The position numbers and the translations under genes were made by a program. A stretch of 64,000 nt of DNA from an uncultured bacterium (GTDB taxonomy: Bacteria > Actinomycetota > Acidimicrobiia > Spongiisociales > ZC4RG35), in contig CAWGTX010000001.1 in NCBI GenBank assembly GCA_963825585.1, positions 669,613 to 733,612 of the forward strand. The letters run 5' to 3'. The notes below the pieces were generated by a model. It had not been told where the DNA came from. It searched no databases and worked only from the letters and a program-made list of their open reading frames with translations. This document shows positions 1,280 through 47,870 of this stretch, piece after piece; the stretch's first letter is position 1, and the number at the start of each line of letters is the position of its first letter.

Positions 1280-2074
1280 ATGAGCCTGCCCGCCACGATC
1301 GCCCGGAGATCGCTCAAGACCGCCTCGATGGTGTTCGACCGGTTCGGGCCTCCGCTGCGGGGGCCACGTCTTCTCATCTATCACCAGGTGGGTGCCGGTA
1401 ACGGCCAGGAGATGGATCTGGCGCTGGATGACTTCCGTCGGCAGATGACCTGGCTGGCGTCGACCGGTGGAGTTGTTTCGCTCGAGGATGCCCTCGTGAC
1501 CCCGGACGATCCCTCGGACCGCTACGTCATCACCTTCGACGACGGGTACGACGACATGTACCGCAACGGCTTTCCGATTCTCCGCGACCTGGGTCTGCCC
1601 TTCGTGCTGTATCTGACCACCCAACCGATCGAGAGCAGAGCGCCGCTCCGCGACGACGGGCTCTCCACTCCGTGCACCTGGGATCAGGTGGGCGACATGA
1701 TGGGCAGCGGTCTCGTGACCCTCGGAGCTCACACCCATTCCCATCCCGACTTCCGTCACATCTCCTCTGCTCACATCGAAGACGAGGTGGGAGTCTCGAA
1801 CCGTCTGATCACCGAACGGACCGGCCACGCTCCGCGTCACTTCACCTACACCTGGGGCTACTGGTCCGAGCAGGCCGACCCCATCGTGCGCGCCGCCTAC
1901 GACACGGCCACCGTTGCCGGCTGCAGGACGGCGCTGGGCGCTCCGGCCAACGCCATCCCACGCCTGCCGGTGCAGCTCACCGACGGGTTCGGCTTCTTCC
2001 GGGCCAGGATGCGGGGAGGGTTCCGTCTCGAGGACACGATCCGTCGTCGCCTCTCCGGGTACAACGGTCCCTGA
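1280..2074 (+). CDS. Polysaccharide deacetylase (NodB homology domain)
   Basis: ITFDDGY and HTHSH NodB motifs. ATG at 1280 (MSLPATIA) chosen over the longer Arg/Pro-rich ORF start at 1178. Confidence 0.75.
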   Translation: MSLPATIARRSLKTASMVFDRFGPPLRGPRLLIYHQVGAGNGQEMDLALDDFRRQMTWLASTGGVVSLEDALVTPDDPSDRYVITFDDGYDDMYRNGFPILRDLGLPFVLYLTTQPIESRAPLRDDGLSTPCTWDQVGDMMGSGLVTLGAHTHSHPDFRHISSAHIEDEVGVSNRLITERTGHAPRHFTYTWGYWSEQADPIVRAAYDTATVAGCRTALGAPANAIPRLPVQLTDGFGFFRARMRGGFRLEDTIRRRLSGYNGP

Positions 2075-2075
2075 C

Positions 2076-3236
2076 GTGGCGCACGTACTCCATGTGATCA
2101 ACCGTTTCGGTACGTCCGGCGGTGCCGAGAATCAGCTCTTCAACAATCTCCGGAGGTTCTCGCATCCGGACCTCACCCACAGCGTGGTTCATGTGTTCCG
2201 AGGTACCGGCGACGATCCGCTTCCCGAGATCCCCAAACACGCCCTGTTCGGTGTGGGGGAGTCCCCCGGCCGGCTGGCGATCATCCGGGCCCTCGACCGC
2301 TACGTGATGGACACCCGACCCGACATCCTGCACTGTTCGCTGGCGGACGCGGCCCTGGCCGCCCGCGTGGTCGGTCGGCGCAGACACATTCCGGTGGTCG
2401 AGAGCCTGGTCAACATCAGCCACGATCCGGTTCGCATCGTCGACAATCCCTCTGTGAGCCCGCTCAAGCTGGCCGGCCACCGGATGCTCGACCGCATCAC
2501 GATGCGGCATGTGACCCGCTTCCACGCCCTGACTCGGGCGGTGGCACGATCCTGGCAGGCGAACGTGGGTATCTCGGCCGACCGGACGGTGATCATCCCG
2601 CGTGGCATCGACGTCGAGGCCTTCGATCACCGTGCCGGCATCGATCGGGCCGCCCTGCGCCAGTCGATCGGCGTGGCGCCCGAGGTCCCGATGCTGCTGA
2701 ACGTCGCCCGACAGGAACCACAGAAAGGCCAGCGCTACCTGCTGGAGGCACTCCCCGCCATCATCGAGCGCCATCCGGAAGTCGTGGCCGTGTTCGCCGG
2801 CCGCGACGGCAACTCCTCACCGATGCTCCGCAAACTGGTGAGCGATCTGGGAATCGAGTCCCACATACGTTTCCTCGGCGTGCGGGACGACGTTCCGGCC
2901 CTGCTGATGGCGGCGGACGTGTTCGTGTTCCCGTCATTGTTCGAAGGGTTGGGGGTTTCGCTGCTGGAGGCGATGGCAGGCGGGGGTGCGGCCTGTGCGG
3001 TTTCGGACGCTCCGCCATTCGACGAGATCGTCGACCCGGGAACCACCGGGGTCATGTTCCGATCGGCAGACGCCAAGGCGTTGGCCGTCACCGTGTCGGC
3101 ACTGCTGGCCGACCCGGAGGCGAGGGCGAAGATGTCGGACGCGGCCCGAGCCGAGGTGATGGCCAACTACCGCATCGAGGCCGTCACCCGTCGACTCGAG
3201 GACATGTACCTGGGCGTGCTCGCCGAACGGCGCTGA
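2076..3236 (+). CDS. Glycosyltransferase family 4 (GT-B, group 1)
   Basis: HVINRFGTSGGAE N-terminus; C-terminal EGLGVSLLEAMAGG...D E-x7-E motif. GTG at 2076 sits 1 nt after the deacetylase stop, and the longer ORF start at 1914 overlaps the upstream gene. Confidence 0.8.
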   Translation: MAHVLHVINRFGTSGGAENQLFNNLRRFSHPDLTHSVVHVFRGTGDDPLPEIPKHALFGVGESPGRLAIIRALDRYVMDTRPDILHCSLADAALAARVVGRRRHIPVVESLVNISHDPVRIVDNPSVSPLKLAGHRMLDRITMRHVTRFHALTRAVARSWQANVGISADRTVIIPRGIDVEAFDHRAGIDRAALRQSIGVAPEVPMLLNVARQEPQKGQRYLLEALPAIIERHPEVVAVFAGRDGNSSPMLRKLVSDLGIESHIRFLGVRDDVPALLMAADVFVFPSLFEGLGVSLLEAMAGGGAACAVSDAPPFDEIVDPGTTGVMFRSADAKALAVTVSALLADPEARAKMSDAARAEVMANYRIEAVTRRLEDMYLGVLAERR

Positions 3237-3398
3237 ACCCGGATGTCTGTTGCCTTCCCGAGGGCGCCGCTGCCCTCGCACCGCCGGGATGGTGGCGGAC
3301 ATGACACATGTGAGCCGAACGTCCGAGGCTTCCACCGACACTCGCTTGCTTCGTGTTGCGGCTGCAGAGCACCACCTGGCTTGATGCGTCGTGCTGTT

Positions 3399-3908
3399 GG
3401 TCGATAGCAACGTCTGGCTGACTGCAGGGGATCGTCGTTCCCGAGACTTGTGCGGGATCGCTGCCTCCAGTCCGTCTGCCCTACCTGCTGCCTGTTTGTC
3501 GTGGCCGCTGAGTCGGGCGTCGCAACGTCCGGGCCCGGCGAGCGCTTCGGGAACGATGAGGTCGACTGGGATGATTTCGTCATGGCCGTCCACGATGATC
3601 GACGTCCCCCAGATTCCCGGACGATCGGGCTGGGTTCTCGCGAATCCGGCCGCGGTCATCAACTCGGCCTGATTCGGCTTATCGGCGAGGGTGGCAGGGT
3701 CGATGGCCAGGTCGGCATCTGTGGTGTAGCTGGCCGAGAACGACAGTGCGACCTCGTCGGTGCGCAGGTAAACGGCTTGTGCGCCCACCAGCACCAGCGA
3801 GCGGCGATGGTCGGCAAGAGCATCGAGCGCTTCCAGCAGGACCCGACGAGCCTCGACCATCAACCGAGGCGCGCTCGTCATGAGCAGGTACCCGAGGTGC
3901 GGCGCCAT
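3399..3908 (-). pseudogene. Possible Pol-beta/AbiEii-like nucleotidyltransferase remnant (N-terminal ~170 aa protein-like; remainder of ORF is antisense to the GT4 gene)
   Basis: ORF 2934..3908 has an N-terminus LVLVGAQAVYLRTDEVALSFSASYTTDADLAI resembling the G[SA]x9-13DxD nucleotidyltransferase motif. The region has lower GC than its flanks, and the ORF tail overlaps the GT4 gene on the other strand. Confidence 0.25.
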
Positions 3909-3984
3909 GCCGATGAGGCAGGGTTCACGGTCGATGGATTGCCGTTCGCCGGGAGGTCTCGGAGAAGGTGGGGCTGCGAGCGGT

Positions 3985-4833
3985 TCACGCCCAGTCAGCG
4001 ACCAGATCCCCGAAGCGTTCCTTCATGCGCTCGATTCGGGGCGCGTACATCGCTCTCAACTCGATTTCGAGTTCGGTTGGCATTGCGCTGCCACCGCCGC
4101 GGGATCCGACCAGGTCGGCGCCGGGTGCGCCGCGGTCGATCACGGTGTCGAGCGGGAAGGCATCCCAGTCGACATCGGTGCCGACGCCGAGGAAGTCGAA
4201 CAGCGAGATGAGCAGCGCCTTGGGGTCCGACACCATTCGGTCGTAGCTGTCGACCCACAGTCGCTCGGCCGGGTAGCGCTTCGTCCACCGGTCCACGATG
4301 CCCACGTAGTCGCCGCTGTCGAGGCTGTGGACCGAGCGGGCGTGGGCGATGTACTCGGACACCGGGACCGAGTCGACGGGGCGGTTGCGTTGGCGGGCCA
4401 CATTCATCTGGGCGTGTGACCAGGCACGGTCCACCGGGTGGCGGATCATCAGCAGCAGCCTGGCGTCGGGGAGCAGGTCGGCCACCACGTCGATCCGATC
4501 GGGGGTCAGCTCCGAGTAGTTCGGTGTGATCTCGCCGCGGAGGCGGTCCCTGGCGGCATCGAAGTGGGCGGCGTACCACCGCAACGAGTGGTGGTAGAAG
4601 TGGCAGAAGTAGTGCAGCTCCTTCTCGGGAGGAACGAACACGCCTGGATGTGCAGCCAGGCAATGGTGCAGCCAAGTGGAACCTGCCTTCGGGGCTCCCA
4701 GTCCGAGAAACTGCGGCAGCGCCAATTTGTCGCTGGACAGGACCCCCCGGCGTGTCAACGCCCGCTCCGGGGCCGAGATCGCGTACTCGGCCCTCTGCGC
4801 GGTCCGGACTACGCGCTTGACCGCCTGCTTCAT
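3985..4833 (-). CDS. PAPS-dependent sulfotransferase family protein
   Basis: 5'-PSB motif LGAPKAGSTWLHHCL (PKxGTTW-like). Start ATG (MKQAVKR) at 4833 is confirmed on the sequence and overlaps the stop of the upstream FemAB-like gene (ATGA). Confidence 0.8.
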   Translation of the reverse strand: MKQAVKRVVRTAQRAEYAISAPERALTRRGVLSSDKLALPQFLGLGAPKAGSTWLHHCLAAHPGVFVPPEKELHYFCHFYHHSLRWYAAHFDAARDRLRGEITPNYSELTPDRIDVVADLLPDARLLLMIRHPVDRAWSHAQMNVARQRNRPVDSVPVSEYIAHARSVHSLDSGDYVGIVDRWTKRYPAERLWVDSYDRMVSDPKALLISLFDFLGVGTDVDWDAFPLDTVIDRGAPGADLVGSRGGGSAMPTELEIELRAMYAPRIERMKERFGDLVADWA

Positions 4834-5879
4834 CGCACCCGTCCTTTCAACGCTTCGGCGGCTCTCCGTCGAAGTCCGACCGCCGCTCCCGCCATCCCAC
4901 GCTGCAACGACCAGGTGGTGTCGGCCGAGGGCACCGCCCCGAAGCGGCGTTTGTAGGCGTCGTCGCCACGCAGGAAGTCGAATGTGGTGGCGCCGGTCTC
5001 GGTGGCGTGGCGCATCGTCGTGCTCACCAACACCGACCCGAGGCTTTGTTTCACATAGTCCTGCGACCATCCGGTCTGGTAGTACGCGAACGTGGCGCCG
5101 AACCGAAACCCGTACAGCACCCCCACGATGTCGCCGTCGAGCCGCGCCACACACGCCATCGGCCCCCGGCCGTCCGAAGCCCCGTCGATGAGGTGTCGGT
5201 GGAACGCCTCGCGATCGCGGTCGAAGCTGGACCCCCATCCCATGCCCTCCGCCCGAACCGCATGCAGCTCGAGCAGACTACGGAAGACGGCCTCGTCGAT
5301 ACCGGAGGCCGGGACCATCGCAACGGAGATGCCGAGCTTGACGAGTTGCCGTTCGAAGTAGCGGAGTTTCTTGGCGAAATCCGCCGAACCGGGAAACCAT
5401 TCGTCGCCGGAACCGAGCGGAGCAACCAGGGTCGGGTTGTCCTCGATCTTGCTGAACCCGGCCTCGGCCAGGCCCTCGACGGACTCTGGCGCCATGTTGG
5501 ACAACACGATCGGGCCTGAGGTGGATTCGATCACCCAGCCTGCAACGTCCCGCCGCAAGCCCGGACGTGCCGGCCACCCGAGGTGGTCCCCGGCGCCGGC
5601 GCCACTGCCGGTGTTCACCCACATCCGTACCGCAGGTCCACCCGAGCGGAGGAGGGGCTGGTTCACGCGGGACACCGCGCAGACGGCCTCCAGAGCGCCC
5701 TCGGGGTCTCGCCACAGTCCGATCCGGGTCTCGGGGCGCCCCGCCAGACGGTCCCACCAGGCAACCGCCCAGGTCCCGGTCTGGAAGAACGAGCCGCCGG
5801 TGGACTCGGCGAGATCGTCCCATTCCGCCACCGGAAGCGCTTCGTCATCCGGTGCCACGACTGCGTCCGGACCTCTCAC
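4830..5879 (-). CDS. FemAB-like / BioF2-like GNAT acetyltransferase (Acetyltransf_6, CelD-like)
   Basis: 349-aa ORF with the FemAB/CelD-type architecture GSFFQTGTWA...VARLDGDIVGVLYGFRF...KRRFGA. Confidence 0.65.
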   Translation of the reverse strand: MRGPDAVVAPDDEALPVAEWDDLAESTGGSFFQTGTWAVAWWDRLAGRPETRIGLWRDPEGALEAVCAVSRVNQPLLRSGGPAVRMWVNTGSGAGAGDHLGWPARPGLRRDVAGWVIESTSGPIVLSNMAPESVEGLAEAGFSKIEDNPTLVAPLGSGDEWFPGSADFAKKLRYFERQLVKLGISVAMVPASGIDEAVFRSLLELHAVRAEGMGWGSSFDRDREAFHRHLIDGASDGRGPMACVARLDGDIVGVLYGFRFGATFAYYQTGWSQDYVKQSLGSVLVSTTMRHATETGATTFDFLRGDDAYKRRFGAVPSADTTWSLQRGMAGAAVGLRRRAAEALKGRVR

Positions 5880-33480: not shown

Positions 33481-33716
33481 AGCAGGGGCAGGTCCGACAT
33501 CCCTGTCCGCTGAACCTCGATGAACAGGCGGTGACAGAGCGCACGGAATGATTCTCGGCGGACCGAAGGGCGTGGAACATCCGCCCATCGTGGATGTGTC
33601 GTATACGACGTATCGACCTATTGTCGAGCCGTCGCGGCGTCGCCTGGGTGGAGGGTTGGCACCAGGTTCTACCAGCGGTTTGAGGTCATTTGAGAAGGGG
33701 GAGAGGGGCTCATCGG

Positions 33717-34880
33717 ATGAGGGTGCTACACGTTGTGGACAGCCTGGCGGGGTCGGGGGGCGCAGAGCATGGGCTCGTGCGTGAGATCACCCGCTTCTCA
33801 CCGCATGTAGAGCAGCGTGTGGTCCGTCTGTACGAACGGGCCGAGCTGGAGCCACTCCTCACCGATGCCGGGATCGAGGTGACGGCGCTGGGGTTCGCCG
33901 CGACCTCCGGCTCGCGTACCTTTCCGCAGGCCGCACTGAAACTCCGGCCGATCGTGAAGGCGTACCGTCCGGAGGTCATCCACACCAGTCTGTTTCTCGG
34001 CAATCTGGTCGGCCAGATGGCGGCGAGGTCGACGGGAATTCCAGTGCTTTCGACGTTCGTGCTGTCGGGAGACCTGGCGTTGCTCAAGGCAACCCAGCCG
34101 GGAGCGGCGTCCCTGAAAGCAGCGGGTATCCGGCGGATCGCCGCACTGTCGGCCCGCCTCAGTGGCGCCAGTTTCCGCGCTCTGTCCAACGATGCCCGCA
34201 TCACCAACTGCCGGCTTCTCGGCGTGCCCTTCGACCGGGTCGAAGTGATTCCGCGGGGTGTCCCGGAACCGGTGGGCCAGCTCATGACGCGTGCCGATCT
34301 GGGCCTGCCCGACGATGTTCCACTCATCGTCAACGTGGCCCGCGTTGCCGCCCAGAAGGGGCAGGTCCATCTGCTCAGGAGCTTCGCTTCCCTGCGCCTG
34401 CAGCGGCCCGATGCCCATCTCGTCATCGTGGGCAGGGCGGGTGACGCCGAACGGAGCGTCGACGGCGAGATCGCCCGGCTCGGTCTGACGGGTCATGTGA
34501 CGATGCTCGGGTACACGCCGTACGCCCGTCACGTGGTCTCGCACGCCTCGGTGTTCGCCTTCAGTTCGCTGATGGAAGGTCTGGGCACCGCGGTGATCGA
34601 GGCACTGGTGGCGAAAGTGCCGGTGGTGGCGTTCGACATCCCCCCGGTTCGAGACGCGACCGACAACGGACGTGGGGCGAGGCTGGTGCCTCTGGGCGAT
34701 GAAGCGGGATTCACCGCCGGGCTCCTCGCCGGTCTTCAAGGTGAACTCGCCACGGTCGCCGATCACGGTGCGACCTTTGCGGCCGAGCACGGCAACCTCG
34801 ACGACATCTCTGCCCGGCTCGAGCGACTGCTGACATCGGTCGCCGCGCGCAAACCGGTGGGTGCGTCTCTGGACCACTGA
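33717..34880 (+). CDS. Glycosyltransferase family 4
   Basis: MRVLHVVDSLAGSGGAEHG N-terminus and EGLGTAVIEALVAKVPVVAFD E-x7-E region. ATG preceded by GAAGGGGGAGAGGGG. Confidence 0.8.
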   Translation: MRVLHVVDSLAGSGGAEHGLVREITRFSPHVEQRVVRLYERAELEPLLTDAGIEVTALGFAATSGSRTFPQAALKLRPIVKAYRPEVIHTSLFLGNLVGQMAARSTGIPVLSTFVLSGDLALLKATQPGAASLKAAGIRRIAALSARLSGASFRALSNDARITNCRLLGVPFDRVEVIPRGVPEPVGQLMTRADLGLPDDVPLIVNVARVAAQKGQVHLLRSFASLRLQRPDAHLVIVGRAGDAERSVDGEIARLGLTGHVTMLGYTPYARHVVSHASVFAFSSLMEGLGTAVIEALVAKVPVVAFDIPPVRDATDNGRGARLVPLGDEAGFTAGLLAGLQGELATVADHGATFAAEHGNLDDISARLERLLTSVAARKPVGASLDH

Positions 34881-35829
34881 CCTTCCGTTTGGGCGGTCTC
34901 CGGCTACATTCTTCGCCGTGGTGGGTAGCGGAAACGCCGGCAGTCCGGTTCGGGGTCCCCGAACAGAGGCCCTCTTCGATCGCGCCCTCGGTCTCGGAAT
35001 GGTGGGCCGGCTGGCTCGAATCACCGTCAACGCCCCGCTGCGGGTACTGGCCTATCACGACATCAAGGACGCGGATGGGTTCGCAGCGCAGATGGAACAC
35101 ATCGCAGAGCGATACCGACCCGTCTCGGTAGCCGATGTCGTCGAGTGGCTGGACGGTGGCACGTTGCCCCCGGCGGCGGTGTGGGTGACCTTCGATGACG
35201 CAGACCCCACCGTCGTGGAAGATGGATTGCCCGTGCTCGAGCACTACGACGTGCCCGCCACCATGTTCATCTGTCCGGGCGTGATCGACACCGACCGGCC
35301 GTACTGGTGGCAGATCGTGGAGCGGACTGCGCCCACCGAGGTGGGGGGATTGAAACTGGCGGAGGATGGCCGACGCCTGGAACGGGTGGCCGAACTCTCC
35401 GATACCTACGTCGAGCGCCATGGCGCCCGTCCCACCCACGAACAGCTGACTCGTATCCAGCTGGAACGCTGGCTCGAGTCGGGGAGAGACATCGGCAACC
35501 ACACGTGGGACCACCCGCTCCTCGACCGCTGTGACGACGCAGAGCAGGAGCGCCAGATCGTGATGGCGCACGACTGGATCCTCGATCGTTTCGCCCCCGA
35601 ACATCTGGTGTTCGCCTACCCCAACGGGAATCGGTCACCCCACGCAGAGGTGGTGCTGAACCGGCTCGGCTACCGGGTGAGCGTTCTGTTCGACCATCGT
35701 CTGACCTCGTTGGCCGCGAGCGGGAGGTTGTCCCGGCTCCGGACGAACGCCGACGGGGACCTTGCCCGCTTCCGCTCGATCGTGTCGGGTGTGCATCCCA
35801 CCATCCACCGCCTACGCGGCGGGCGATGA
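34861..35829 (+). CDS. Polysaccharide deacetylase (NodB homology)
   Basis: VTFDDADP and HTWDHP NodB motifs. GTG at 34861 overlaps the GT4 stop by 20 nt; alternative ATG at 34999. Confidence 0.75.
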   Translation: MRLWTTDLPFGRSPATFFAVVGSGNAGSPVRGPRTEALFDRALGLGMVGRLARITVNAPLRVLAYHDIKDADGFAAQMEHIAERYRPVSVADVVEWLDGGTLPPAAVWVTFDDADPTVVEDGLPVLEHYDVPATMFICPGVIDTDRPYWWQIVERTAPTEVGGLKLAEDGRRLERVAELSDTYVERHGARPTHEQLTRIQLERWLESGRDIGNHTWDHPLLDRCDDAEQERQIVMAHDWILDRFAPEHLVFAYPNGNRSPHAEVVLNRLGYRVSVLFDHRLTSLAASGRLSRLRTNADGDLARFRSIVSGVHPTIHRLRGGR

Positions 35830-35906
35830 TCGCGGTCGGGAGCCTGGTCGGCAGCCCCACAGATTCCCAGACGAGTCATCGTGCTCGGTCCACCTAGGAT
35901 CGAGGA

Positions 35907-36995
35907 ATGTTCGACTACCACCAGCGGATCCGGCGGGCCCGTGGAGTCATGGATCGACTGGGCATCGACTGCCTGCTCGTTTCCGTCGGGCCCGACCTCC
36001 CGTACCTGACCGGGTACGAGGCCATGGCTTCCGAACGCCTCACGATGCTCGTCGTGGGACGGGAGGACGAAGCGACCCTGGTGATACCCGAGCTCGAGGC
36101 TCCCCGGGTTGCACCAGGACCGTTCCGGATCAGGGCGTGGTCGGAGACCGACGACCCAACAGGCATCGTTGCGTCGCTCGCCGGCAGACCCGCGGTCGCC
36201 GCCGTGGGTGACCACATGAGGGCGGTGTTCCTGCTCGGTCTCCTGCCGCTGCTGCCGGCCACCACCTTCGTCCCGGCTTCGGTGCTCACCCGGGTGCTGA
36301 GGGAGGTGAAGGAGCCCGCCGAAGTCGAGGCTCTTCGGGCGGCGGCGCAGGCGGTCGACCGGATCGCCGGAAGCATCCCCAGCGAGGTGCGGTTCGGGGG
36401 ACGGAGCGAGCAGGCGGTGGCGCGTGACATCGTCGAGATGACGCTGGGCGAAGGCCACGAAACCGCTTCGTTCTGGATCGTGGCGACAGGACCCAACTCC
36501 GCTTCGCCGCACCACGAACCGGGAGACCGGGTCATCGCCCGGGGCGATTCGGTGGTGGTGGACTTCGGGGGGCGGATGAGCGGCTACTGCTCGGACATCA
36601 CCCGCACGTTCGTGGTGGGGGAGCCGTCGGCGGAGCTGTCCGAGGTGCATTCCGTGGTCGCGGCCGCCCAGGCGGCGGCCCGATCGCATGCTCGGACAGG
36701 TGTGACGGCTGCTTCGGTGGACGCCGCCGCGCGTGAGGTGATCACCGATGCCGGCTACGGCGCGTACTTCGTCCACCGACTGGGGCACGGTATCGGGTTG
36801 GAAGGGCACGAACATCCCTATCTGGTGGCGGGCAACCAGCAGATCCTCCAACCCGGCAATGCGTTCTCGATCGAACCGGGCATCTACCTACCGGATCGGT
36901 TCGGCGTGAGGATCGAGGACATCGCCGTGATCGCCTCGGACGGCAGTCTCGACGTCCTCAACCGGTCGGATCGGTCGCTGCGTACGGTGGATTGA
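35907..36995 (+). CDS. M24 family Xaa-Pro aminopeptidase / creatinase-fold metallopeptidase
   Basis: Metal-ligand pattern DFGGRMSGYCSDITRT ... HRLGHGIGLEGHE ... SIEPGIY ... RIEDIAV. Confidence 0.8.
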   Translation: MFDYHQRIRRARGVMDRLGIDCLLVSVGPDLPYLTGYEAMASERLTMLVVGREDEATLVIPELEAPRVAPGPFRIRAWSETDDPTGIVASLAGRPAVAAVGDHMRAVFLLGLLPLLPATTFVPASVLTRVLREVKEPAEVEALRAAAQAVDRIAGSIPSEVRFGGRSEQAVARDIVEMTLGEGHETASFWIVATGPNSASPHHEPGDRVIARGDSVVVDFGGRMSGYCSDITRTFVVGEPSAELSEVHSVVAAAQAAARSHARTGVTAASVDAAAREVITDAGYGAYFVHRLGHGIGLEGHEHPYLVAGNQQILQPGNAFSIEPGIYLPDRFGVRIEDIAVIASDGSLDVLNRSDRSLRTVD

Positions 36996-37007: not shown

Positions 37008-38000
37008 TCAGCTGATCGTGACCACGATGCGGGTTCGGCGAATCAGCACATCCTGGTGGTACCAGCGGCCCTCGATCGAGAAGCTACCCGACGCCGGCGT
37101 GACGACCGTGTGGTTCCAGTTTCTCGTCACAACGGCTCCTGTCGACGTCTCGACCGGGGCCGGTCTCGGCCGTTGGGTGCCGTCGATGAGCAGATCGAAA
37201 CGGGTCGTCGAGGATCGGAAAGCCCCTTCCTCGCCTCCGACGAACGGAAGGACGTGGTCCCATCCCTCCGCCACCGAGATGCGCCGGTTTGGTCCACTGG
37301 TGGCGCTCCCGGAGCATGCGGTGCCGTCTTTCGAGCAGAACCAGCCTCGCGCCAGGTCGACCAACGGGGGCCGTTGGGGAAGCGCCAGCGCGCGTGCGAG
37401 AAACGATGCCATCTGTTCCCGTGTGACCGAGTTGGATGGGCAGTAGCGATCGTTGTCTGGTGGATTGCAGCCGACCGTGATCCCCGCCGTGGCGAGTCGT
37501 TCGATGTCGGCCTCGAACACCGAGCCGTTGTCGTCGACGAAGTCCACGTCGCCGCGGTCGGTGAGATCGAGAGCCCGCACCAGAAACGACGCCATCTGGC
37601 CTCTCGTGACCGGGGCATTCGGGCAGAACAGGGTGTTGCCGGGCGGGTTGCATCCCCGCGAGATGCCGGTGGCTGCGAGCCACTCGATGTCCCCCTCGAA
37701 CACGGTCCCCGTCGCGTCCGAGAACGAGGCGTCAGGCCCGATTGCGACACTGCCCTCGAATCCGCGTCGGAGGAAGGCTGCCATCTGTCCCCTCGTGACC
37801 GTCGCCTGCGGACAGAACCTGTCGGAGGTGGGTGGATTGCAGCCGACCGTGACACCGGCCGCGGCGATCGCCTCGATTGCCGACTCGTGCACCGAGGTGT
37901 CGTCGTCGGTGAAGCGTCCGGACAGGCGAGCGGCGCCGGCCGGTGCCACCGACCAGAGGAGTGCACTCACGACCACCAACGCGAGAGTCCGGGACTTCAC
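37008..38000 (-). CDS. Secreted protein with three SLH-like repeats and ~110-aa C-terminal domain of unknown function
   Basis: GTG at 38000 (VKSRTLALVVVSALLWSVAPAGAA signal), in a GTGA overlap with the upstream gene. Repeats as in 6733..7389. The N-terminal 237 aa of track ORF 37008..38711 is Arg-rich artefact. Confidence 0.65.
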   Translation of the reverse strand: MKSRTLALVVVSALLWSVAPAGAARLSGRFTDDDTSVHESAIEAIAAAGVTVGCNPPTSDRFCPQATVTRGQMAAFLRRGFEGSVAIGPDASFSDATGTVFEGDIEWLAATGISRGCNPPGNTLFCPNAPVTRGQMASFLVRALDLTDRGDVDFVDDNGSVFEADIERLATAGITVGCNPPDNDRYCPSNSVTREQMASFLARALALPQRPPLVDLARGWFCSKDGTACSGSATSGPNRRISVAEGWDHVLPFVGGEEGAFRSSTTRFDLLIDGTQRPRPAPVETSTGAVVTRNWNHTVVTPASGSFSIEGRWYHQDVLIRRTRIVVTIS

Positions 38001-38452
38001 GGAGCGATCTCCAGTCCCGCCAGCACAGTGTTGATCTGGCCGATCACGTCGGCGCGGTCGACATGCGACCCGACCACGATGTAGAGGCAGAAGGCACGCC
38101 CGGCATGAGTGAAGAACCGTTGCACGCCCGACATACCGGTAACGCGTGTGTGGAGGACGTCGCGGTCGAAGTCGTCGGTCGACACGAACCGGGGAGCCCC
38201 CTCGGTTGCGAACAGGGCCGTGCCCACGCTCTCGGGCCCGTACTCGTAGAGCACGACGAGCGCGTCGCCGGGTTCCATCACCATGATGGCACCACCACCG
38301 AAATCGCCCCGCCCGGGGGGTAGCGGGAAGTTGGCCAGATGGGCCACCGTCGGTCTGACCGCACCGTCCTCGAGCAGGTTGAGGCCCTCGTCGAGCTGGC
38401 CCTCCCAGCCGGCAGGGAGGTCGGCGCCGATGCCGCGTCCGTTGAGTCTCAT
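37997..38452 (-). CDS. Hypothetical protein (152 aa)
   Basis: ATG MRLNGRG confirmed at 38452. 4-nt overlaps with both neighbours, so it is embedded in the operon. Confidence 0.4.
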   Translation of the reverse strand: MRLNGRGIGADLPAGWEGQLDEGLNLLEDGAVRPTVAHLANFPLPPGRGDFGGGAIMVMEPGDALVVLYEYGPESVGTALFATEGAPRFVSTDDFDRDVLHTRVTGMSGVQRFFTHAGRAFCLYIVVGSHVDRADVIGQINTVLAGLEIAP

Positions 38453-39021
38453 GATCCGACCAGCCCGATGACTGACCCGCCGGCGAGCAACGCAACCGCT
38501 GCCGTGAGTCGGGCGGGCGTGGTGAGACGGGCCATGGTCTCGTGGAATCGACCGAGGCGTGACGGTCGGTCGATCCAGCCGGCGGCGAGCAGTGGGATCG
38601 CCCGTCCTCCACCGAACAGCATCCCTGCGATCGCACCGACGATCGGGTCGCCCATGAGGGCAAGGGCAACCACGAGAGCCGGCACCGCCCACGTGACGAC
38701 ATAGGTCGCAAATCCGATCCCCAGTTGAGCGCCGAAGGAGATCCCGTACACCCAACCTCGGAAGGTGCCGATCCACCGCTCGTTGACCTGGCGATGGAGC
38801 CACGGAACGGGTACAGCGGCGAGGTCGGCGACCCCGGCGGCCACGACCACCGCGGCCACCCATACCGGTGACGGTCGTGTGGCCAGCACGGAACCTACGA
38901 GCGCGGAGGTGGTGCCAAGGACGGCACCGGAGGTCATCGAGCCGACCGTGAACGCCGTCACGGTGACCCACCATCGGTTGGAGCGTGCCCGCTCACCGAG
39001 CGGGTGGATGCTGGACAGCAT
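38449..39021 (-). CDS. Hypothetical integral membrane protein (operon member)
   Basis: 190-aa ORF with 4-5 TM helices and no CxxC. Confidence 0.45.
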   Translation of the reverse strand: MLSSIHPLGERARSNRWWVTVTAFTVGSMTSGAVLGTTSALVGSVLATRPSPVWVAAVVVAAGVADLAAVPVPWLHRQVNERWIGTFRGWVYGISFGAQLGIGFATYVVTWAVPALVVALALMGDPIVGAIAGMLFGGGRAIPLLAAGWIDRPSRLGRFHETMARLTTPARLTAAVALLAGGSVIGLVGS

Positions 39022-39089
39022 CGATTCTCCTCAGGGTGACCAGCTCGAGCGGAGTGCGGCGAAGACCGCTGCGATGTAGACGGCGGTGG

Positions 39090-39818
39090 TCATGTGACCT
39101 CACCGGTCGGGCGTTGGTACAACACGGGGTCCCCCGGGGCGATCCCGGCCCGACGGAGTTCTTCTTCGGAGTCGGCCAGCCGATCGGTCGTGGAGCGGTG
39201 CAGAGGAATGCTCTCGGCGACGTCGCCCAGAGCCCGGTCCACGAGGCCAACCAGTTGCTGCCAGCCGGCCGCCGCCCCGTCGCCCACCACGACACCGCGA
39301 TCGGAATCGACCAGTGCGAAGTAGGGCGTGAACGGCACCTTGAAGTCGTCCCACGCCTCCGACGACATGATGGTCAGCGGATCGGACGGAGCCAGGCGCC
39401 GAATGTCACCCAGCGACTCGTCCATCGCCGACTTGGTCACGATGACCGTCCGTACCCCGCCACGAGGGGACTCGTGTCCGTCCTTGGCGAACTCCGCCCA
39501 AAAGGTCTTGCAGGTGCTGCAGCCCGAGGAGAGGAAGGCGAGGAGCGTGTAGCCACGCGAACCCTGCAGCGCCACCGACACGGTTGCTCCCTGCGGGCTC
39601 ATCCCGGTGATTGCGGTCCCGGGTGCCTCCTGCAGGGCGCGTGGCCGGCGGGTGGGGGAGAGCGGAACGGCAGCGGGGGCGTGGGCCGACGTGTGGTCGT
39701 CTCCCGCCCCGAGCTCGTGAAGCCGGCGAAGGATCTCGGCGTGACTGCGCAGCAGTCCGGCGACCAGCACGGCGAGCAGGAGGATGACGACACCCTCGAT
39801 CACCACGATCGCCGTCAT
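39090..39818 (-). CDS. Membrane-anchored thioredoxin-like protein (TlpA/ResA/MauD-like, CxxC)
   Basis: ATG MTAIVVIEGVVILLLAVLVAGLL (TM anchor) confirmed at 39818. Thioredoxin-fold active site FLSSGCSTCKTFW. Confidence 0.7.
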   Translation of the reverse strand: MTAIVVIEGVVILLLAVLVAGLLRSHAEILRRLHELGAGDDHTSAHAPAAVPLSPTRRPRALQEAPGTAITGMSPQGATVSVALQGSRGYTLLAFLSSGCSTCKTFWAEFAKDGHESPRGGVRTVIVTKSAMDESLGDIRRLAPSDPLTIMSSEAWDDFKVPFTPYFALVDSDRGVVVGDGAAAGWQQLVGLVDRALGDVAESIPLHRSTTDRLADSEEELRRAGIAPGDPVLYQRPTGEVT

Positions 39819-41152
39819 TCGATCCTCCCCCACACGACCGGCGTGCCGGTTGCGTCGCCGAACGTGAAGCTCGAGTCCGCTCCACCAGTCGTCCAACTGT
39901 TGCGCAGCGACCACACGCCACCGGAGAACCATCCGGGCAGAGTCCGGCCCGAGCCCGTCCAGTCGCCGGCCACCGGGACACCGCCACCGCTGAAGGTGAT
40001 GTCGATCTCTGGAGAGCCACCGCTGTTGGTGTTGCGCAGCAGCCACCGCTCGCCGCGTACCATCCCGGGGGAGTCCACCCCGTCGCCGTTCCAGTCGCCG
40101 ACCACGGGAATGTCGCCGGCCTGCCCGAACGTGAACTCGATGTCGGCAGCGCCGGCGCTGTTCGAATTCCGCAACAGCCAGCGGTTGCCCCGCACCACGC
40201 CGATGGTCGCAACCCCGGTGCCGTTCCAGTCGCCCACAACGGGGATGTCGCCCAGGGTGCCGTAGCGAACGACGAGGTCGGGAAGACCCGACCCCGGAAC
40301 CTGGCGGATGTACCAGGTGAGGGTCTCGTCGCCATCGATGCCGAGGCGGGCGCCCCGTACCACCGCCGGGGTCTCCAAGCCGCTCCCCGAGAAGTCGGCC
40401 ATGAGTGGCACATCCCCCGGAAGGCCGTAGGTGAAGTCGGACTGGGAAGCGCCGCTGGTCAAACCGTCGCGCAACGCCCAGGCATTCGATGTCACCACAC
40501 CGGGCCGAGCCGGAACGGGAGGGTTGTCACCGGTGTCGAACGGATGCAGGCAAGCGGCGTCATGGGTGCGGGTGTTCTGGTCGACGGCGTCGGAGCGGGT
40601 GCAGGAGGAGTCCCATTCCCAGGGCGGTACGCAGGTGATGACCCGGCATTCGATCGGCCCCAGACACTCGATGTTCTGGTTGCACTGGCCGTACCTGAAT
40701 CGGGTGCAGCCGACCTTCCAGTTGCCGCAGTCGTTGTTGGCACAGCGACAGGAGGTGCCGGCACATTCGGGGCTGCACGTACCCGAACCCCCGCAGCCGC
40801 AACTCCCACAGGAGGACGAGTTGCAGTCCATGTAGTACCGGGACCCGCCACCGCAGTATCCCGACCCTTCGGCGCGCCACCAGCCGGCGATCATCGATCC
40901 GGGAGGACAGGTGTTGACGCCGGTCATCGTGCAGCAGAACTGGGTGTAGCCACCGTCGGCGCAACGGGTTCCACCCGGGCAGTTCGAGGGGGTGCGGACG
41001 ACCGCCGAATACGCCGAGCCGGGGCGGAGGATGTACACGGCGGGGGCGGTCGCCAGGGCCGAGCCGACGATGGCGCTCCGCCGCAGGAACCCCCGGCGAC
41101 TGGTGCGTTGCTCGAGGAAGCCCGCGGCCCTGTCGACGAACGATCCACTCAT
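39815..41152 (-). CDS. Tat-signal secreted protein: extremely Cys-rich N-terminal domain (about 26 Cys in about 150 aa) followed by FG-GAP-like beta-propeller repeats
   Basis: SRRGFLRRSAIVGSALATAPAVY twin-arginine signal. Cys-rich run CPGGTRCADGGYTQFCCTMTGVNTCPP...CGSCGCGGSGTCSPECAGTSCRCANNDCGNWKVGC. Repeats DIPVVGDWNGDGVDSPGMVRGERWLLRN x5. Confidence 0.65.
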   Translation of the reverse strand: MSGSFVDRAAGFLEQRTSRRGFLRRSAIVGSALATAPAVYILRPGSAYSAVVRTPSNCPGGTRCADGGYTQFCCTMTGVNTCPPGSMIAGWWRAEGSGYCGGGSRYYMDCNSSSCGSCGCGGSGTCSPECAGTSCRCANNDCGNWKVGCTRFRYGQCNQNIECLGPIECRVITCVPPWEWDSSCTRSDAVDQNTRTHDAACLHPFDTGDNPPVPARPGVVTSNAWALRDGLTSGASQSDFTYGLPGDVPLMADFSGSGLETPAVVRGARLGIDGDETLTWYIRQVPGSGLPDLVVRYGTLGDIPVVGDWNGTGVATIGVVRGNRWLLRNSNSAGAADIEFTFGQAGDIPVVGDWNGDGVDSPGMVRGERWLLRNTNSGGSPEIDITFSGGGVPVAGDWTGSGRTLPGWFSGGVWSLRNSWTTGGADSSFTFGDATGTPVVWGRIE

Positions 41153-41751
41153 GACCGCCCCGTCCGGGCTGCCGCAATCGTGGCGGGCATCTCGGCGAGG
41201 ATCAGATACAGGAGGTAGGTGGCCAACGCAGCGAAGACCATGACTCCGCCGGCTTCGAGGGCGTCGGAGCCGAAACGGTCGAACAGGCTGGCTCGGCCCG
41301 CCGCGCCGGCCGACCCGGCTGCAAGCGCGAGGTTCACGACGACATGGCTACGGGTGGGGGGCGTGTCCCGTTTCCCGAAGCACCCGCAGCTCTGGATCGG
41401 CAGGTCCCGACGAAGCGCCCAGGCGACGAAACCGGCGAACCCGACGTAGAGGGACGCCACCGCCAGGCCCGCCGCCGGATGTGGGGTGACCAGGGCCGAC
41501 GCGCCCGCCGCGATCTCGACGAGACCCAGCGCGGTGACAGCCGCGCGGTTCGCAGGCAGACGGGCAGCACGAAGCGCACCCGTGGTTGGGCCCCCGTCCG
41601 CCAGTTTGGCTCCCCCGCTCAGGATCAGCAGCAAGGCTGCGATCACGAGCATGCTTTCCAGCAGCATCGTGACGAGGCTAGTCCAAGCGGTGGGGGAAGC
41701 GACCACACGTTCAGAACGTCGCTGGGCGGTCGCTTCATCCTTCTGGCGCAT
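41149..41751 (-). CDS. MauE/DoxX-family redox-associated membrane protein (CGC motif)
   Basis: TM-rich protein with the SCGCFG motif. Candidate ATG starts at 41751, 41667 and 41652; the track start at 41955 is probably too long. Confidence 0.6.
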   Translation of the reverse strand: MRQKDEATAQRRSERVVASPTAWTSLVTMLLESMLVIAALLLILSGGAKLADGGPTTGALRAARLPANRAAVTALGLVEIAAGASALVTPHPAAGLAVASLYVGFAGFVAWALRRDLPIQSCGCFGKRDTPPTRSHVVVNLALAAGSAGAAGRASLFDRFGSDALEAGGVMVFAALATYLLYLILAEMPATIAAARTGRS

Positions 41752-41797
41752 CTCCGACGTTCGGATACTGTGTGGACCGGGAACAAGGGAGCGGATC

Positions 41798-42739
41798 ATG
41801 AAGACACTCGTCACCGGCGGCGCCGGTTTCATCGGATCGAACATCGCGCGCGCACTACTCGAACGGGGCGACGAGGTGCGGATCATCGACGACTTCGCCA
41901 CCGGGCGGCGCCAGAACGTCGAAGGGCTCGACGTCGAACTCATCGAGGCCACCATCGAGGACCCCGAGGCGGTGGCGCGAGCCGTCGAGGGAGTCGAGGT
42001 GGTGTTTCACCAGGCCGCCCTCCCCAGCGTGAAGCGAAGCGTGGACAACCCTGCTCGGACGCACTCGGTCAACGCCACCGGGTCGCTCAACGTCTTGAAC
42101 GCCGCCCGCATGGCCAACGTCAGGCGGGTCGTGTACGCCTCGTCATCGAGCGCATACGGCAACACCCCCACGCTCCCAAAGCACGAAGGTATGGTCACGG
42201 CCCCTCTCTCGCCGTACGCCGTCGCCAAGCTGGCAGGCGAGCAGTACTGCAAGGCATTCGCCCATGTCTACGATCTCGAGACGGTGGCTCTGCGCTACTT
42301 CAACGTGTTCGGGCCCCATCAGGACCCCACCAGCCACTATTCGGCGGTGATCCCGCTGTTCACCACCGCCCTCCTCGAGGGGCGAGCGCCAGTCATCCAC
42401 GGCGACGGCGAACAGACCCGCGACTTCACCTACGTCGACAACGTGATCCAGGCGAACTTGAAGGCGGCCGCCGCCGACTCCCGGTCCTCAGGCGAGGCAA
42501 TGAACATCGCCTGCGGTTACCGCGTCAGTCTCAACCAGCTGCTGGTGGCCATCGGCGAGACGCTCGGGAACACCGACTACCAGGTCACCCACACCGAGAC
42601 CCGTGCCGGCGACGTACGCGACTCACTCGCCGACATCTCCAAAGCCCGCGACCTCATCGGCTACGAACCCACCGTCCTGCTCGAAGAGGGTCTGAAGAAG
42701 ACGGTCGAGTGGTTCGTGGGAGCGGGCGCGAACGCGTAG
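41798..42739 (+). CDS. NAD-dependent nucleotide-sugar epimerase/dehydratase (UDP-GlcNAc/UDP-Glc 4-epimerase-like, extended SDR)
   Basis: MKTLVTGGAGFIGSNIA Rossmann motif and catalytic YAVAK (YxxxK). ATG at 41798 preceded by AAGGGA. Confidence 0.85.
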   Translation: MKTLVTGGAGFIGSNIARALLERGDEVRIIDDFATGRRQNVEGLDVELIEATIEDPEAVARAVEGVEVVFHQAALPSVKRSVDNPARTHSVNATGSLNVLNAARMANVRRVVYASSSSAYGNTPTLPKHEGMVTAPLSPYAVAKLAGEQYCKAFAHVYDLETVALRYFNVFGPHQDPTSHYSAVIPLFTTALLEGRAPVIHGDGEQTRDFTYVDNVIQANLKAAAADSRSSGEAMNIACGYRVSLNQLLVAIGETLGNTDYQVTHTETRAGDVRDSLADISKARDLIGYEPTVLLEEGLKKTVEWFVGAGANA

Positions 42740-46589: not shown

Positions 46590-47870
46590 ATGACGCCCGA
46601 GATCTCCCAGCGGATGGAACTCGTCCGCCTCGCCACCACCGGCTCGGTGGACGACGGCAAGTCGACTCTCATCGGTCGACTGCTGTACGACACCAAACAG
46701 ATCTTCGAAGACCAGATGGAGGCGATCGAAGAGGCCTCCAGGCGACGGGGCACCGACTACGTCGACCTGGCGCTGCTCACCGACGGACTCCGGGCCGAAC
46801 GCGAACAGGGCATCACCATCGATGTCGCCTACCGGTACTTCGCCACGCCCAAACGGAAGTTCGTGCTGGCCGACACCCCCGGACACGTCCAGTACACCCG
46901 CAACATGGTGACGGGTGCATCGACGGCCGATATCGCCCTCATCCTCATCGACGCTCGCAAGGGCATCCTCGAGCAGACGCGTCGCCATTCGTTCATCGCC
47001 TCGCTCCTCCAGGTGCCCCACCTGGTGCTGTGCGTGAACAAGATGGACCTGGTCGATTACAGCGAGGAGCGGTACGACGAGTTGGTGGAGGAGTTCCGCC
47101 AGTTCGCCACCCGCCTCGACATCACCGACCTGCGTTTCGTGCCGGTGTCGGCGCTGGTGGGTGACAACATCGTCGACGAGAGCCTCAACACCCCGTGGTA
47201 CAAGGGCCCATCGGTCCTCCACCTTCTCGAGGACATCCACGTGGGTAGCGACCGAAACATGATCGACTGCCGGTTCCCGGTGCAATATGTGATCCGTCCC
47301 CACACGATGGAGCATCAGGACTACCGGGGCTATGCCGGGCAGATCCAGGGTGGGGTCTTCAAGAAGGGCGACGAGGTCATCGTGCTGCCCGCCGGATTCA
47401 CCACCAGGATCGCATCGATCGACACGTTCGACGGTCCTGTCGAAGAGGCGGCGCCGCCGGCCTCGGTGGTGATCCGGCTCGAGGACGAGATCGACATCAG
47501 CCGCGGCGACATGATCTGTCGCCCCCACAACCAGCCGCACGTCGGCCAGGATCTCGACGCCATGGTCTGCTGGCTGTCGGACACGGCAACGCTGCGTCCT
47601 GGCGCCAAGTACGCCATCAAGCACACGAGCCGTTGGGCCCGTGCGATGGTCAAGGACGTCCAGTACCGGCTGAACATCAACACGCTGCATCGCGACGAGG
47701 AGGCCGATTCGATCGGGCTCAACGAGATCGGCCGGATCCGTCTCCGGACCACCGTGCCGATGTTCTTCGACGAGTACCGCCGCAACCGTGACACCGGATC
47801 GTTCATCCTCGTCGACGAGGCCACCAACAACACGGTGGGAGCGGGCATGATCACCGGGCCAGCGGTCTGA
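46590..47870 (+). CDS. cysN: Sulfate adenylyltransferase subunit 1 (GTPase), not fused to APS kinase
   Basis: G1 GSVDDGKSTL, G3 DTPGH, G4 NKMD. Starts 1 nt after the cysD stop. Confidence 0.9.
   Translation: MTPEISQRMELVRLATTGSVDDGKSTLIGRLLYDTKQIFEDQMEAIEEASRRRGTDYVDLALLTDGLRAEREQGITIDVAYRYFATPKRKFVLADTPGHVQYTRNMVTGASTADIALILIDARKGILEQTRRHSFIASLLQVPHLVLCVNKMDLVDYSEERYDELVEEFRQFATRLDITDLRFVPVSALVGDNIVDESLNTPWYKGPSVLHLLEDIHVGSDRNMIDCRFPVQYVIRPHTMEHQDYRGYAGQIQGGVFKKGDEVIVLPAGFTTRIASIDTFDGPVEEAAPPASVVIRLEDEIDISRGDMICRPHNQPHVGQDLDAMVCWLSDTATLRPGAKYAIKHTSRWARAMVKDVQYRLNINTLHRDEEADSIGLNEIGRIRLRTTVPMFFDEYRRNRDTGSFILVDEATNNTVGAGMITGPAV

Follow-up and report, generated by a model that had tools for sequence, protein, structure and literature searches.

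A putative Mau-type oxidative-folding operon with a Cys-rich client protein and a candidate selenoprotein MauF homologue in Acidimicrobiia

We analyzed an operon on the minus strand, at 37008..41667, of a 64-kb stretch of contig CAWGTX010000001.1 from an uncultured bacterium of the Acidimicrobiia; the whole stretch is called the window here, and coordinates are numbered along it. Our comparisons favor, with modest confidence, a dedicated Mau-type oxidative-folding (maturation) module encoded together with its client, an exported Cys-rich protein. What is new, as judged from sequence, is a full set of MauF, MauE, and MauD helpers without the dehydrogenase, tied to a large new client family, and with a predicted, unannotated selenocysteine (Sec) in the MauF homologue.

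A six-gene operon with relatives of MauE, MauD, and MauF

Read from the upstream end, the six head-to-tail open reading frames (ORFs) encode a 172-amino-acid (aa) MauE-family membrane protein (41149..41667), a 445-aa protein with a Tat leader and a Cys-rich domain, hereafter the client (39815..41152), a 242-aa MauD-like protein with a thioredoxin fold (39090..39818), a 214-aa homologue of MauF that includes the candidate Sec codon (38449..39093), a conserved 151-aa protein (37997..38452), and a secreted 330-aa protein with SLH repeats (37008..38000). A sequence-only reading of this DNA had described six minus-strand genes coupled by ATGA or GTGA overlaps, and all five 4-nt junctions are present: tcATGAgt between MauE and the client (41152-41149), gaATGAcg between the client and the thioredoxin (39818-39815), caATGAcc between the thioredoxin and the membrane protein (39093-39090), tcATGAga between the membrane protein and the 151-aa protein (38452-38449), and ccGTGAag between the 151-aa protein and the SLH protein (38000-37997). 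The third overlap requires that the membrane-protein gene be read through an in-frame TGA at 39033-39031. Consensus scans within the operon detected no sigma-70-like promoter and no intrinsic terminator (0 of each) that would separate the genes. Local GC content is 64-69%, and the client ORF might have been an artefact of a GC-rich frame; its GC content at third codon positions is 0.84 (0.84-0.85 in both halves) compared to 0.77-0.87 in neighboring genes, so the frame is genuine coding sequence, and it has hundreds of homologues.

The MauE-family protein matches Pfam PF07291 at 60.1 bits (gathering threshold 27, E=3.5e-16), which bears out by profile search the identity first read from its SCGCFG motif, and the profile of its family aligns with MauE of Paracoccus denitrificans (hhalign 96%, E=4.9e-9). 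The active-site motif is S-C94-G-C96-F-G; a Lys lies in SGGAKL of the first transmembrane helix (TM1) and a Glu in GLVEIA of TM2, both kept in the family consensus. Phe-Gly after the CXC motif, a conserved Lys in TM1, and a conserved Glu in TM2 have been described as conserved in MauE, homologues of which replace DsbB in an Escherichia coli dsbB mutant, with the CXC motif being needed (bioRxiv 10.64898/2026.03.05.709764). We predict that the MauE of the operon is a DsbB-like disulfide-generating protein. The gene itself had been recognized correctly, but its start had been placed at 41751; because 41667 is where both the Pfam match and the alignment of the family set in, translation most likely starts there.

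Downstream of the client, the 242-aa protein had been read as a membrane-anchored, MauD-like CxxC thioredoxin. This holds in comparisons with P. denitrificans MauD, both by BLASTP (E=3e-6, across the CxxC and cis-Pro regions) and by hhalign of an 80-sequence family profile (95.2%, E=2.6e-8), but does not extend to the curated MauD model, which is taken up below, and Pfam scores are weak (AhpC-TSA, E=0.056; Thioredoxin_2, E=0.15). The active site is C100-S-T-C103, and the N-terminal membrane anchor has an unusual layout in common with MauD, in which M-T is followed by ~22 hydrophobic residues and then by L-x-R-x-x-x-x-L-x-x-R. We take the protein to be a distant relative of MauD.

The next gene, previously described as encoding a polytopic membrane protein, is real and can be identified further. 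BLASTP against P. denitrificans MauF, taken with its mau cluster (locus L084), gave E=2e-5 with an alignment that starts at S-T-W-S-P-C-G of MauF; a 52-sequence family profile aligned with MauF over 166 columns (hhalign 98.8%, E=8.8e-17); and MauF as a tblastn query matched 36 related loci (best E=3.7e-13). No NCBIfam model matches the operon protein, P. denitrificans MauF itself has no Pfam or NCBIfam match, and no curated MauF model exists. The score with PF02683 (DsbD_TM/CcdA) is 19.1 bits, below the threshold of 27.1, and there is one conserved Cys/Sec rather than the two expected of that family; some homologues match DsbD_2 weakly. On these comparisons we identify the protein as a MauF homologue. 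The parallel drawn earlier with the methylamine dehydrogenase cluster thus holds, and is deeper than proposed, since a MauF homologue is present as well. The accompanying observation that no amine dehydrogenase is encoded here stands too, as MauB and MauG, together with amicyanin, MauJ, MauM, and MauN, have no tblastn match either in the window or in any of 83 related loci.

The two remaining genes fall outside the Mau set. The 151-aa protein has no match in Pfam, NCBIfam, or the Protein Data Bank (PDB) and resembles none of the Mau proteins of P. denitrificans; MauJ, MauG, MauM, MauN, MauB, and amicyanin were considered for it and ruled out, with no relation found. With no signal peptide or TM helix, it is presumably cytoplasmic. 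The surface protein with SLH repeats that had been proposed for the end of the operon matches Pfam PF00395 (E=1e-11; 45.1 bits against 20.8). A cysteine pair of the form G-C-N-P-P...C-P occurs in every one of its three SLH-like repeats; the protein also has a linker containing W-F-C-S-K-D-G-T-A-C and a ~110-aa C-terminal domain. As both the repeats and the linker hold cysteine pairs, the SLH protein may be a second disulfide client of the operon.

Evidence that these genes belong together comes from 51 species loci in which the sequence extends 1.5 kb or more upstream and 4.5 kb or more downstream of the Cys-rich gene. The thioredoxin gene and the 151-aa protein gene are each adjacent in 50 of the 51 loci, the MauE gene in 48 (38 by tblastn and 10 more by an ORF with C-G-C-F-G ~0.5 kb upstream), and the MauF-homologue gene in 36. 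The SLH gene is adjacent in only 22 and is therefore a lineage-specific accessory. Gene order is not fixed. With "hyp" for the 151-aa protein, the window has E-client-D-F-hyp-SLH, locus L063 has client-D-F-hyp-E, loci L034, L037, and L040 have client-D-hyp-F, and the distant loci L085 and L086 have D-F-hyp-E-client and E-D-F-hyp-client, respectively. The two distant loci carry other C-terminal domains (CW_binding_2/LGFP-type clients) and nonetheless keep all five genes, with a Sec-type MauF. That linkage outlasts such reshuffling argues in favor of a functional unit rather than inherited synteny, and this co-occurrence sustains the earlier suggestion of a dedicated system.

A different explanation, which we consider unlikely, is that MauE and the thioredoxin are the general DsbB/DsbA-type housekeeping pair of the organism and that their position beside the Cys-rich gene is without meaning. 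MauE homologues can act as generalist replacements of DsbB, and most species that contain MauE are without MauA (bioRxiv 10.64898/2026.03.05.709764). The paired cysteines of the SLH protein would likewise fit a pair with several clients. A housekeeping role does not account well, however, for linkage of the Cys-rich gene to the MauE, thioredoxin, and 151-aa protein genes that survives both rearrangements and swaps of the client's C-terminal domain. It is also at odds with the translational coupling through 4-nt overlaps and with two representatives of the Cys-rich family (among P0020-P0167) that contain a MauE domain as well, by either fusion or a merged gene call.

The Cys-rich domain and its likeness to the methylamine dehydrogenase light chain

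The client is composed of a leader (residues 1-49; 41006..41152), a Cys-rich domain (residues 50-215; 40508..41005), and C-terminal repeats (residues 216-445; 39818..40507). The Tat signal that had been proposed is real, scoring 19.1-20.4 bits with TIGR01409 (cut-off 16.7), but the cysteines number 22, at residues 58-201 (144 residues), not about 26. They lie in dense CxC, CC, and CxxC motifs, such as C-G-S-C-G-C-G-G-S-G-T-C. The five FG-GAP-like repeats with GDWNGDG are likewise visible in an alignment, at ~45 aa each and with the pattern W-x-L-R-N ... G-D-x-P-V-x-G-D-W-N-G-D-G. Pfam FG-GAP, however, gave no match even at E<=10, and the label of FG-GAP beta-propeller therefore derives only from the repeat motif. 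Against PDB sequences the repeats had no significant match, and a profile search gave a marginal one to a muramidase (E=0.024).

No Pfam or NCBIfam model covers the ~165 residues of the mature Cys-rich domain. An AlphaFold2 (AF2) model is compact and mostly beta, and it is confident without ligands (predicted local distance difference test [pLDDT] score of 89.4); a model made with a 12-sequence alignment had a pLDDT of 44 and was discarded. Foldseek comparison of the retained model to the PDB returned no match, no convincing structural neighbor is available, and phmmer and hmmsearch runs of the protein and its family against the PDB returned spurious armadillo-repeat matches or none.

The family proved to be far larger than a word-indexed search suggested: that search found 19 relatives, compared to at least 480 clusters at 50% identity in an exhaustive profile search and at least 592 species in a scan of one genome per species. 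The best 80 species matches are almost all metagenome-assembled genomes (MAGs) of Acidimicrobiia, and the closest loci have 86-90% identity. Across 95 members the domain is always N-terminal while the C-terminal part varies, with LGFP in 28 and FG-GAP_3 in 6, and with CW_binding_2, SLH, DUF346, ricin, tectonin, and Beta-prop_PLL in others; most of these partners are wall-binding or carbohydrate-binding (lectin-type) modules. Literature searches found no paper on this family, and we propose that the domain founds a large, previously unannotated one. Frameshifts split the Cys-rich gene in two of the metagenome assemblies (L002, 10001-11329; L003, 888-2230) and shorten the database proteins P0002 and P0017. 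They are probably assembly errors; genes neighboring the one in L002 are split as well.

Apart from cysteines, the invariant residues of the domain are N80, P83, G90, W91, W92, R105, D109, F152-R-Y-G155, R170, and T194. The invariant W-W, R-Y-x-x-D, and F-R-Y-G-Q stretches suggest a candidate binding or catalytic site.

By eye, the N-x-C-P-P-G-T...W and Y-x-D-C motifs of the client resemble the light chain of methylamine dehydrogenase, MauA, whose sequence was checked against PDB entries 1mg2_B and 3c75_L. Profiles of the client leader plus domain and of the MauA family (94 and 115 sequences) align from the leader through C-P-P-G-T (hhalign 97.2%, E=4e-11); deeper profiles were required for this, a shallow 12-sequence client profile having given 1.4%. 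In addition, with the hidden Markov model of the client family, genuine MauA precursors reach as much as 32.8 bits, compared to no more than 5.6 bits for shuffled ones. Most of the signal sits in the leader, which alone aligns with the MauA leader (hhalign 97%, E=6e-11). The mature domain alone gave no significant match to MauA (hhalign 8%, HMMER ~3 bits), and its motif is matched with P=0.004 over 22 columns. Common ancestry of the N-terminal half of the client and MauA is therefore plausible, and we would put it at roughly an even chance.

If ancestry is shared, the domain might be a single-chain quinoprotein, distantly related to the light chains, bearing tryptophan tryptophylquinone (TTQ), of methylamine and aromatic amine dehydrogenases. 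MauE, MauD, and MauF would then also serve cofactor biogenesis, and the C-terminal repeats would act as a propeller heavy chain. The MauA-like leader is joined in the client to the motif C-x5-C-x-DG-x3-CC-x7-CPPGT-x5-W, and a low-stringency alignment places W92 near MauA W57 and D109-C110 near MauA D76-C77. The 100% invariance of W91, W92, R105, D109, F152-R-Y-G155, R170, and T194 is active-site-like. All three small-subunit-specific Mau helpers are present, and many members have C-terminal domains of the propeller type (Beta-prop_PLL, FG-GAP_3, DUF346, and tectonin). We nevertheless doubt this reading. MauG, a flavoprotein hydroxylase, MauB, and amicyanin are all missing from the window and the 83 related loci; the MauA models PF02975 and TIGR02659 are unmatched; the comparisons of the mature domain are not significant; and W178, the candidate second Trp, is kept in 83% of members and is Tyr or Val in 17%. 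The lack of MauB, MauG, and the other Mau proteins and the variability of W178 make a TTQ cofactor in the client unlikely, though a cross-link of another kind is conceivable.

A broader version of the same idea, which we regard as speculative and improbable, is that the Cys-rich domain represents an unrecognized class of enzymes, widespread among actinobacteria, that are anchored to the wall and have a cofactor derived from the protein itself. They would come from a common stock with TTQ light chains, with fused repeats or a propeller replacing the heavy chain and with MauF, MauE, and MauD as an ancestral three-part maturation machine. Were this so, methylamine dehydrogenase would be one specialized offshoot of an older system of Cys-dense cofactor domains.

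It is very improbable that the domain is instead an extracellular metal-binding module, metallothionein-like or of the metal-cluster type, with redox proteins that maintain its thiols in reduced form or insert the metal. The density of CxC, CC, and CxxC motifs would suit such a module, as would the weak scores of the MauF family with the DsbD_TM and DsbD_2 models, whose superfamily includes metal transporters; against it, the number of cysteines is even in 86 of 94 domains (91%) though it ranges from 16 to 28, the domain is extracytoplasmic and adjoins a DsbB-like oxidase, the AF2 model is confident without ligands, and the invariant residues are aromatic or charged, with no His/Cys clusters. 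Reductase behavior of MauE, which would also favor this module, was suggested by an earlier study, here known through its citation in bioRxiv 10.64898/2026.03.05.709764.

An in-frame UGA in the MauF homologue

Public gene calls start the MauF homologue at ATG 39021, giving 190 aa rather than the 214 aa obtained with read-through of the upstream TGA. ATG 39093, which overlaps the thioredoxin stop, opens a 20-codon, in-frame hydrophobic stretch that runs to the TGA at 39033-39031, and this codon (39031..39033) becomes residue 21 of the longer protein, in the motif R-S-S-W-S-P-U-G-E-S. The 190-aa ORF has a subthreshold match to DsbD_TM that begins at profile position 34 (E=0.006); adding the N-terminal 24 aa improves it to E=0.0009 and extends it to position 8. 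Nearly all of the top 120 homologues in databases have lengths of 184-197 aa, and they are named "hypothetical," "TauE/SafE," or "CcdA."

Conservation around the codon argues that it is translated. TGA occupies this position in 42 distinct sequences (the window and 41 other loci), within R-S-x-W-S-P-[TGA]-G-E-S-M-L-S-S-I-H-P-L-G-E-R. A Cys codon occupies the same position in 10 loci (L023, L034, L037, L040, L041, L046, L051, L054, L070, and L079), within W-S-P-C-G-L-S-M-L-S-T-I-T-P, and Cys is also found in P. denitrificans MauF. Locus L003 has the same arrangement as the window; there, the residues upstream have diverged while the TGA motif is identical.

Within the coding sequence, a candidate Sec insertion sequence (SECIS)-like element lies just downstream, at 38988..39022. 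It comprises hairpin 1 (39007..39022; GAUGCU-GUCC-AGCAUC), 8 nt after the UGA, and hairpin 2 (38988..39004; CCCGCUC-GGU-GAGCGGG), 26 nt after it. The minimum-free-energy fold of the 51 nt from the UGA consists of exactly these two hairpins (-19.5 kcal/mol). Over the 42 sequences, 98.4% of cells are paired; with the partners slid, the share is 33-46%. Hairpin 2 has three base pairs with compensatory changes (CG/UA, GC/CG, and CG/UA), some of them nonsynonymous, and L003 has a compensatory change of G-C to C-G in its hairpin. Cys-type loci are without hairpin 1, and the peptide that follows their Cys is relaxed (G-L-S-M-L-S-T-I-T-P-M-A-E-R). The invariant S-M-L-S-S-I-H-P-L-G-E-R of the Sec type therefore seems to be constrained as much by RNA structure as by protein. 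No Rfam family matches the region.

Machinery for Sec can be found next to the cluster in one relative. In L063, an Acidimicrobiales MAG, selD, selA (PF03841, 2e-98), selB (with SelB winged-helix and beta-barrel domains), and a tRNA-Sec with anticodon TCA, together at 1639-5750, lie directly upstream of the Cys-rich/MauD/MauF/hyp/MauE cluster, physically tying the machinery to the operon that would need it. Sec machinery has also been reported from another order of Acidimicrobiia (bioRxiv 10.64898/2026.04.03.716425). A SelB-like tblastn match at 46629-47861 of the window, with others in several loci, was not counted as SelB; at ~25% identity these are most likely other translational GTPases. 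No family listed in a review of prokaryotic selenoproteins (PMC13188914) resembles MauF or a W-S-P-U-G membrane protein, and a MauF with Sec did not come up in literature searches.

We conclude that the MauF homologue is very likely a selenoprotein, read through the UGA. The opposing view, that the TGA is a true stop, that the 20-codon upstream ORF encodes a leader peptide or one that serves in coupling, and that translation of the membrane protein begins at ATG 39021, is highly unlikely. It could draw on an AGGAG Shine-Dalgarno-like sequence 5 nt ahead of that ATG, but AGGAG here corresponds to Gly-Glu codons (GGN-GAR) that are conserved as protein. It agrees with database gene calls, all of ~190 aa, and with the failure to find tRNA-Sec or sel genes in the window. 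A true stop does not explain, however, why 10 Acidimicrobiia orthologues and Paracoccus MauF have Cys at the aligned position, flanked on both sides by conserved residues (R-S-x-W-S-P-[U/C]-G), or why the upstream 20 codons keep frame and hydrophobicity despite sequence divergence. Compensatory substitutions in the downstream hairpins, including those that change amino acids, and the adjoining selD-selA-selB-selC of L063 also speak against it.

Proposed mechanism and comparison with known systems

In the oxidative-folding module that we favor, the client would be exported through its Tat-type leader, which resembles those of methylamine dehydrogenase light chains, and, once outside the cytoplasm, its 22 cysteines would most likely pair into 11 disulfides rather than bind metal. 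MauE, with its CGC site, would make disulfides in the manner of DsbB and pass electrons to quinone, if the direction of electron flow is as we infer. The MauD-like CxxC thioredoxin would carry oxidizing equivalents to the client, shuffle its disulfides, or both, on the outside of the membrane. The MauF homologue would be a third thiol/selenol relay, with Sec replaced by Cys in some relatives and with selenium making the relay more reactive; the most economical guess is a reducing or isomerizing, proof-reading branch in the manner of CcdA/DsbD. The 151-aa protein may assist from the cytoplasm, perhaps by chaperoning the leader or the client before it folds, although a Tat chaperone is a guess. 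The client repeats and the cotranscribed SLH protein would place the product at the cell wall.

Several observations weigh against this interpretation. Tat normally exports folded proteins, which is awkward for folding after export. Much of the leader likeness to MauA is generic to Tat signals, since 14 unrelated Tat leaders, used as an approximate control, score 3-17 bits against a MauA-leader median of 20.7. The client has no match to PF02975 at E<=10 or to TIGR02659 at E<=1, and the thioredoxin has none at E<=1 to TIGR02661, the NCBIfam MauD equivalog, with which P. denitrificans MauD itself scores 383.7 bits. Both are therefore called Mau-like and not members of those families. A positive segment after the anchor of the thioredoxin, also found in MauD, makes its sidedness uncertain. 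The MauF-like protein has a single conserved redox residue where the relays CcdA and DsbD have two Cys, so its role is a guess. Its gene is not beside the cluster in 15 of the 51 well-flanked loci, where the thioredoxin gene is followed directly by the 151-aa gene, and it is therefore not indispensable everywhere; loci without it beside the cluster include L012-L015, L022, L028, L036, L042, L044, L045, L048, L050, L059, L068, L082, and L083. Lastly, neither sel genes nor a tRNA-Sec was found in the window, where ARAGORN detected no tRNA.

The surroundings of the operon can be described briefly. On the plus strand, a convergent gene ends at 36995 and a divergent one, epimerase-like, begins at ~41798; the latter is separated from MauE by a 130-bp intergenic region (41668..41797). 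By its position, this is presumed to be the promoter region of the operon; a consensus scan detected no sigma-70 consensus in it. Judged by motifs only, the flanks at 33690-36995 and 41798-42739 carry envelope-glycan-like genes (glycosyltransferase-, polysaccharide-deacetylase-, and NAD-epimerase-like). The syntenic locus L002 (1-9115) has glycosyltransferase and ABC_tran/ABC2_membrane transporter genes upstream of the cluster and an SLH/polysaccharide-lyase gene downstream.

Among the Mau helpers, only MauE has recently been given a biochemical role, which is DsbB-like (bioRxiv 10.64898/2026.03.05.709764). The finding that the MauF/E/D trio is locked to a different and larger client family suggests a general module for Cys-dense exported domains, and the operon offers a second, tractable system for the long-standing question of what MauF and MauD do. 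The MauF homologue would add a family of membrane selenoproteins that current annotation truncates. A transmembrane selenol relay would bear on the formation and proof-reading of numerous disulfides and may help in producing disulfide-rich proteins.

Of the systems with which the operon can be compared, the closest is the mauFBEDA cluster of P. denitrificans and Methylobacterium extorquens, which also sets the helpers mauF, mauE, and mauD near a small, Cys-dense client with a Tat leader, there the light chain MauA, on which they act. The leader and the first ~45 mature residues of the operon client resemble MauA, and the W-S-P-C-G site of MauF is retained in the operon homologue, but with Sec predicted in place of Cys. 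The operon differs in that it is without MauB, MauG, amicyanin, MauJ, MauM, and MauN by tblastn and adds the conserved 151-aa protein, and its host is a monoderm actinobacterium. The client has 22 cysteines where MauA has 12, is ~40 residues longer, carries wall-binding repeats as a fusion, and is not matched by the MauA models.

The DsbB-DsbA and VKOR-thioredoxin systems likewise pair a four-helix membrane protein, with a periplasm-facing pair of cysteines, with a carrier of the thioredoxin fold. The active site in the operon, in contrast, is CXC and not CXXC, and the operon appears to be dedicated to one client family and to add a third membrane redox protein, the MauF-like one, and a cytoplasmic partner. 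CcdA and DsbD share with the MauF homologue a weak profile likeness and a redox residue in an S-P-C-like motif at TM1. The homologue, however, scores below the gathering threshold and has one conserved redox residue instead of two, namely the putative selenocysteine. With known prokaryotic selenoproteins it shares a UGA that is in frame and aligns with Cys of orthologues, a stem-loop that follows closely, and a redox setting; it differs from them in that its SECIS-like element would consist of tandem short hairpins encoded by the invariant peptide that follows the UGA, S-M-L-S-S-I-H-P-L-G-E-R.

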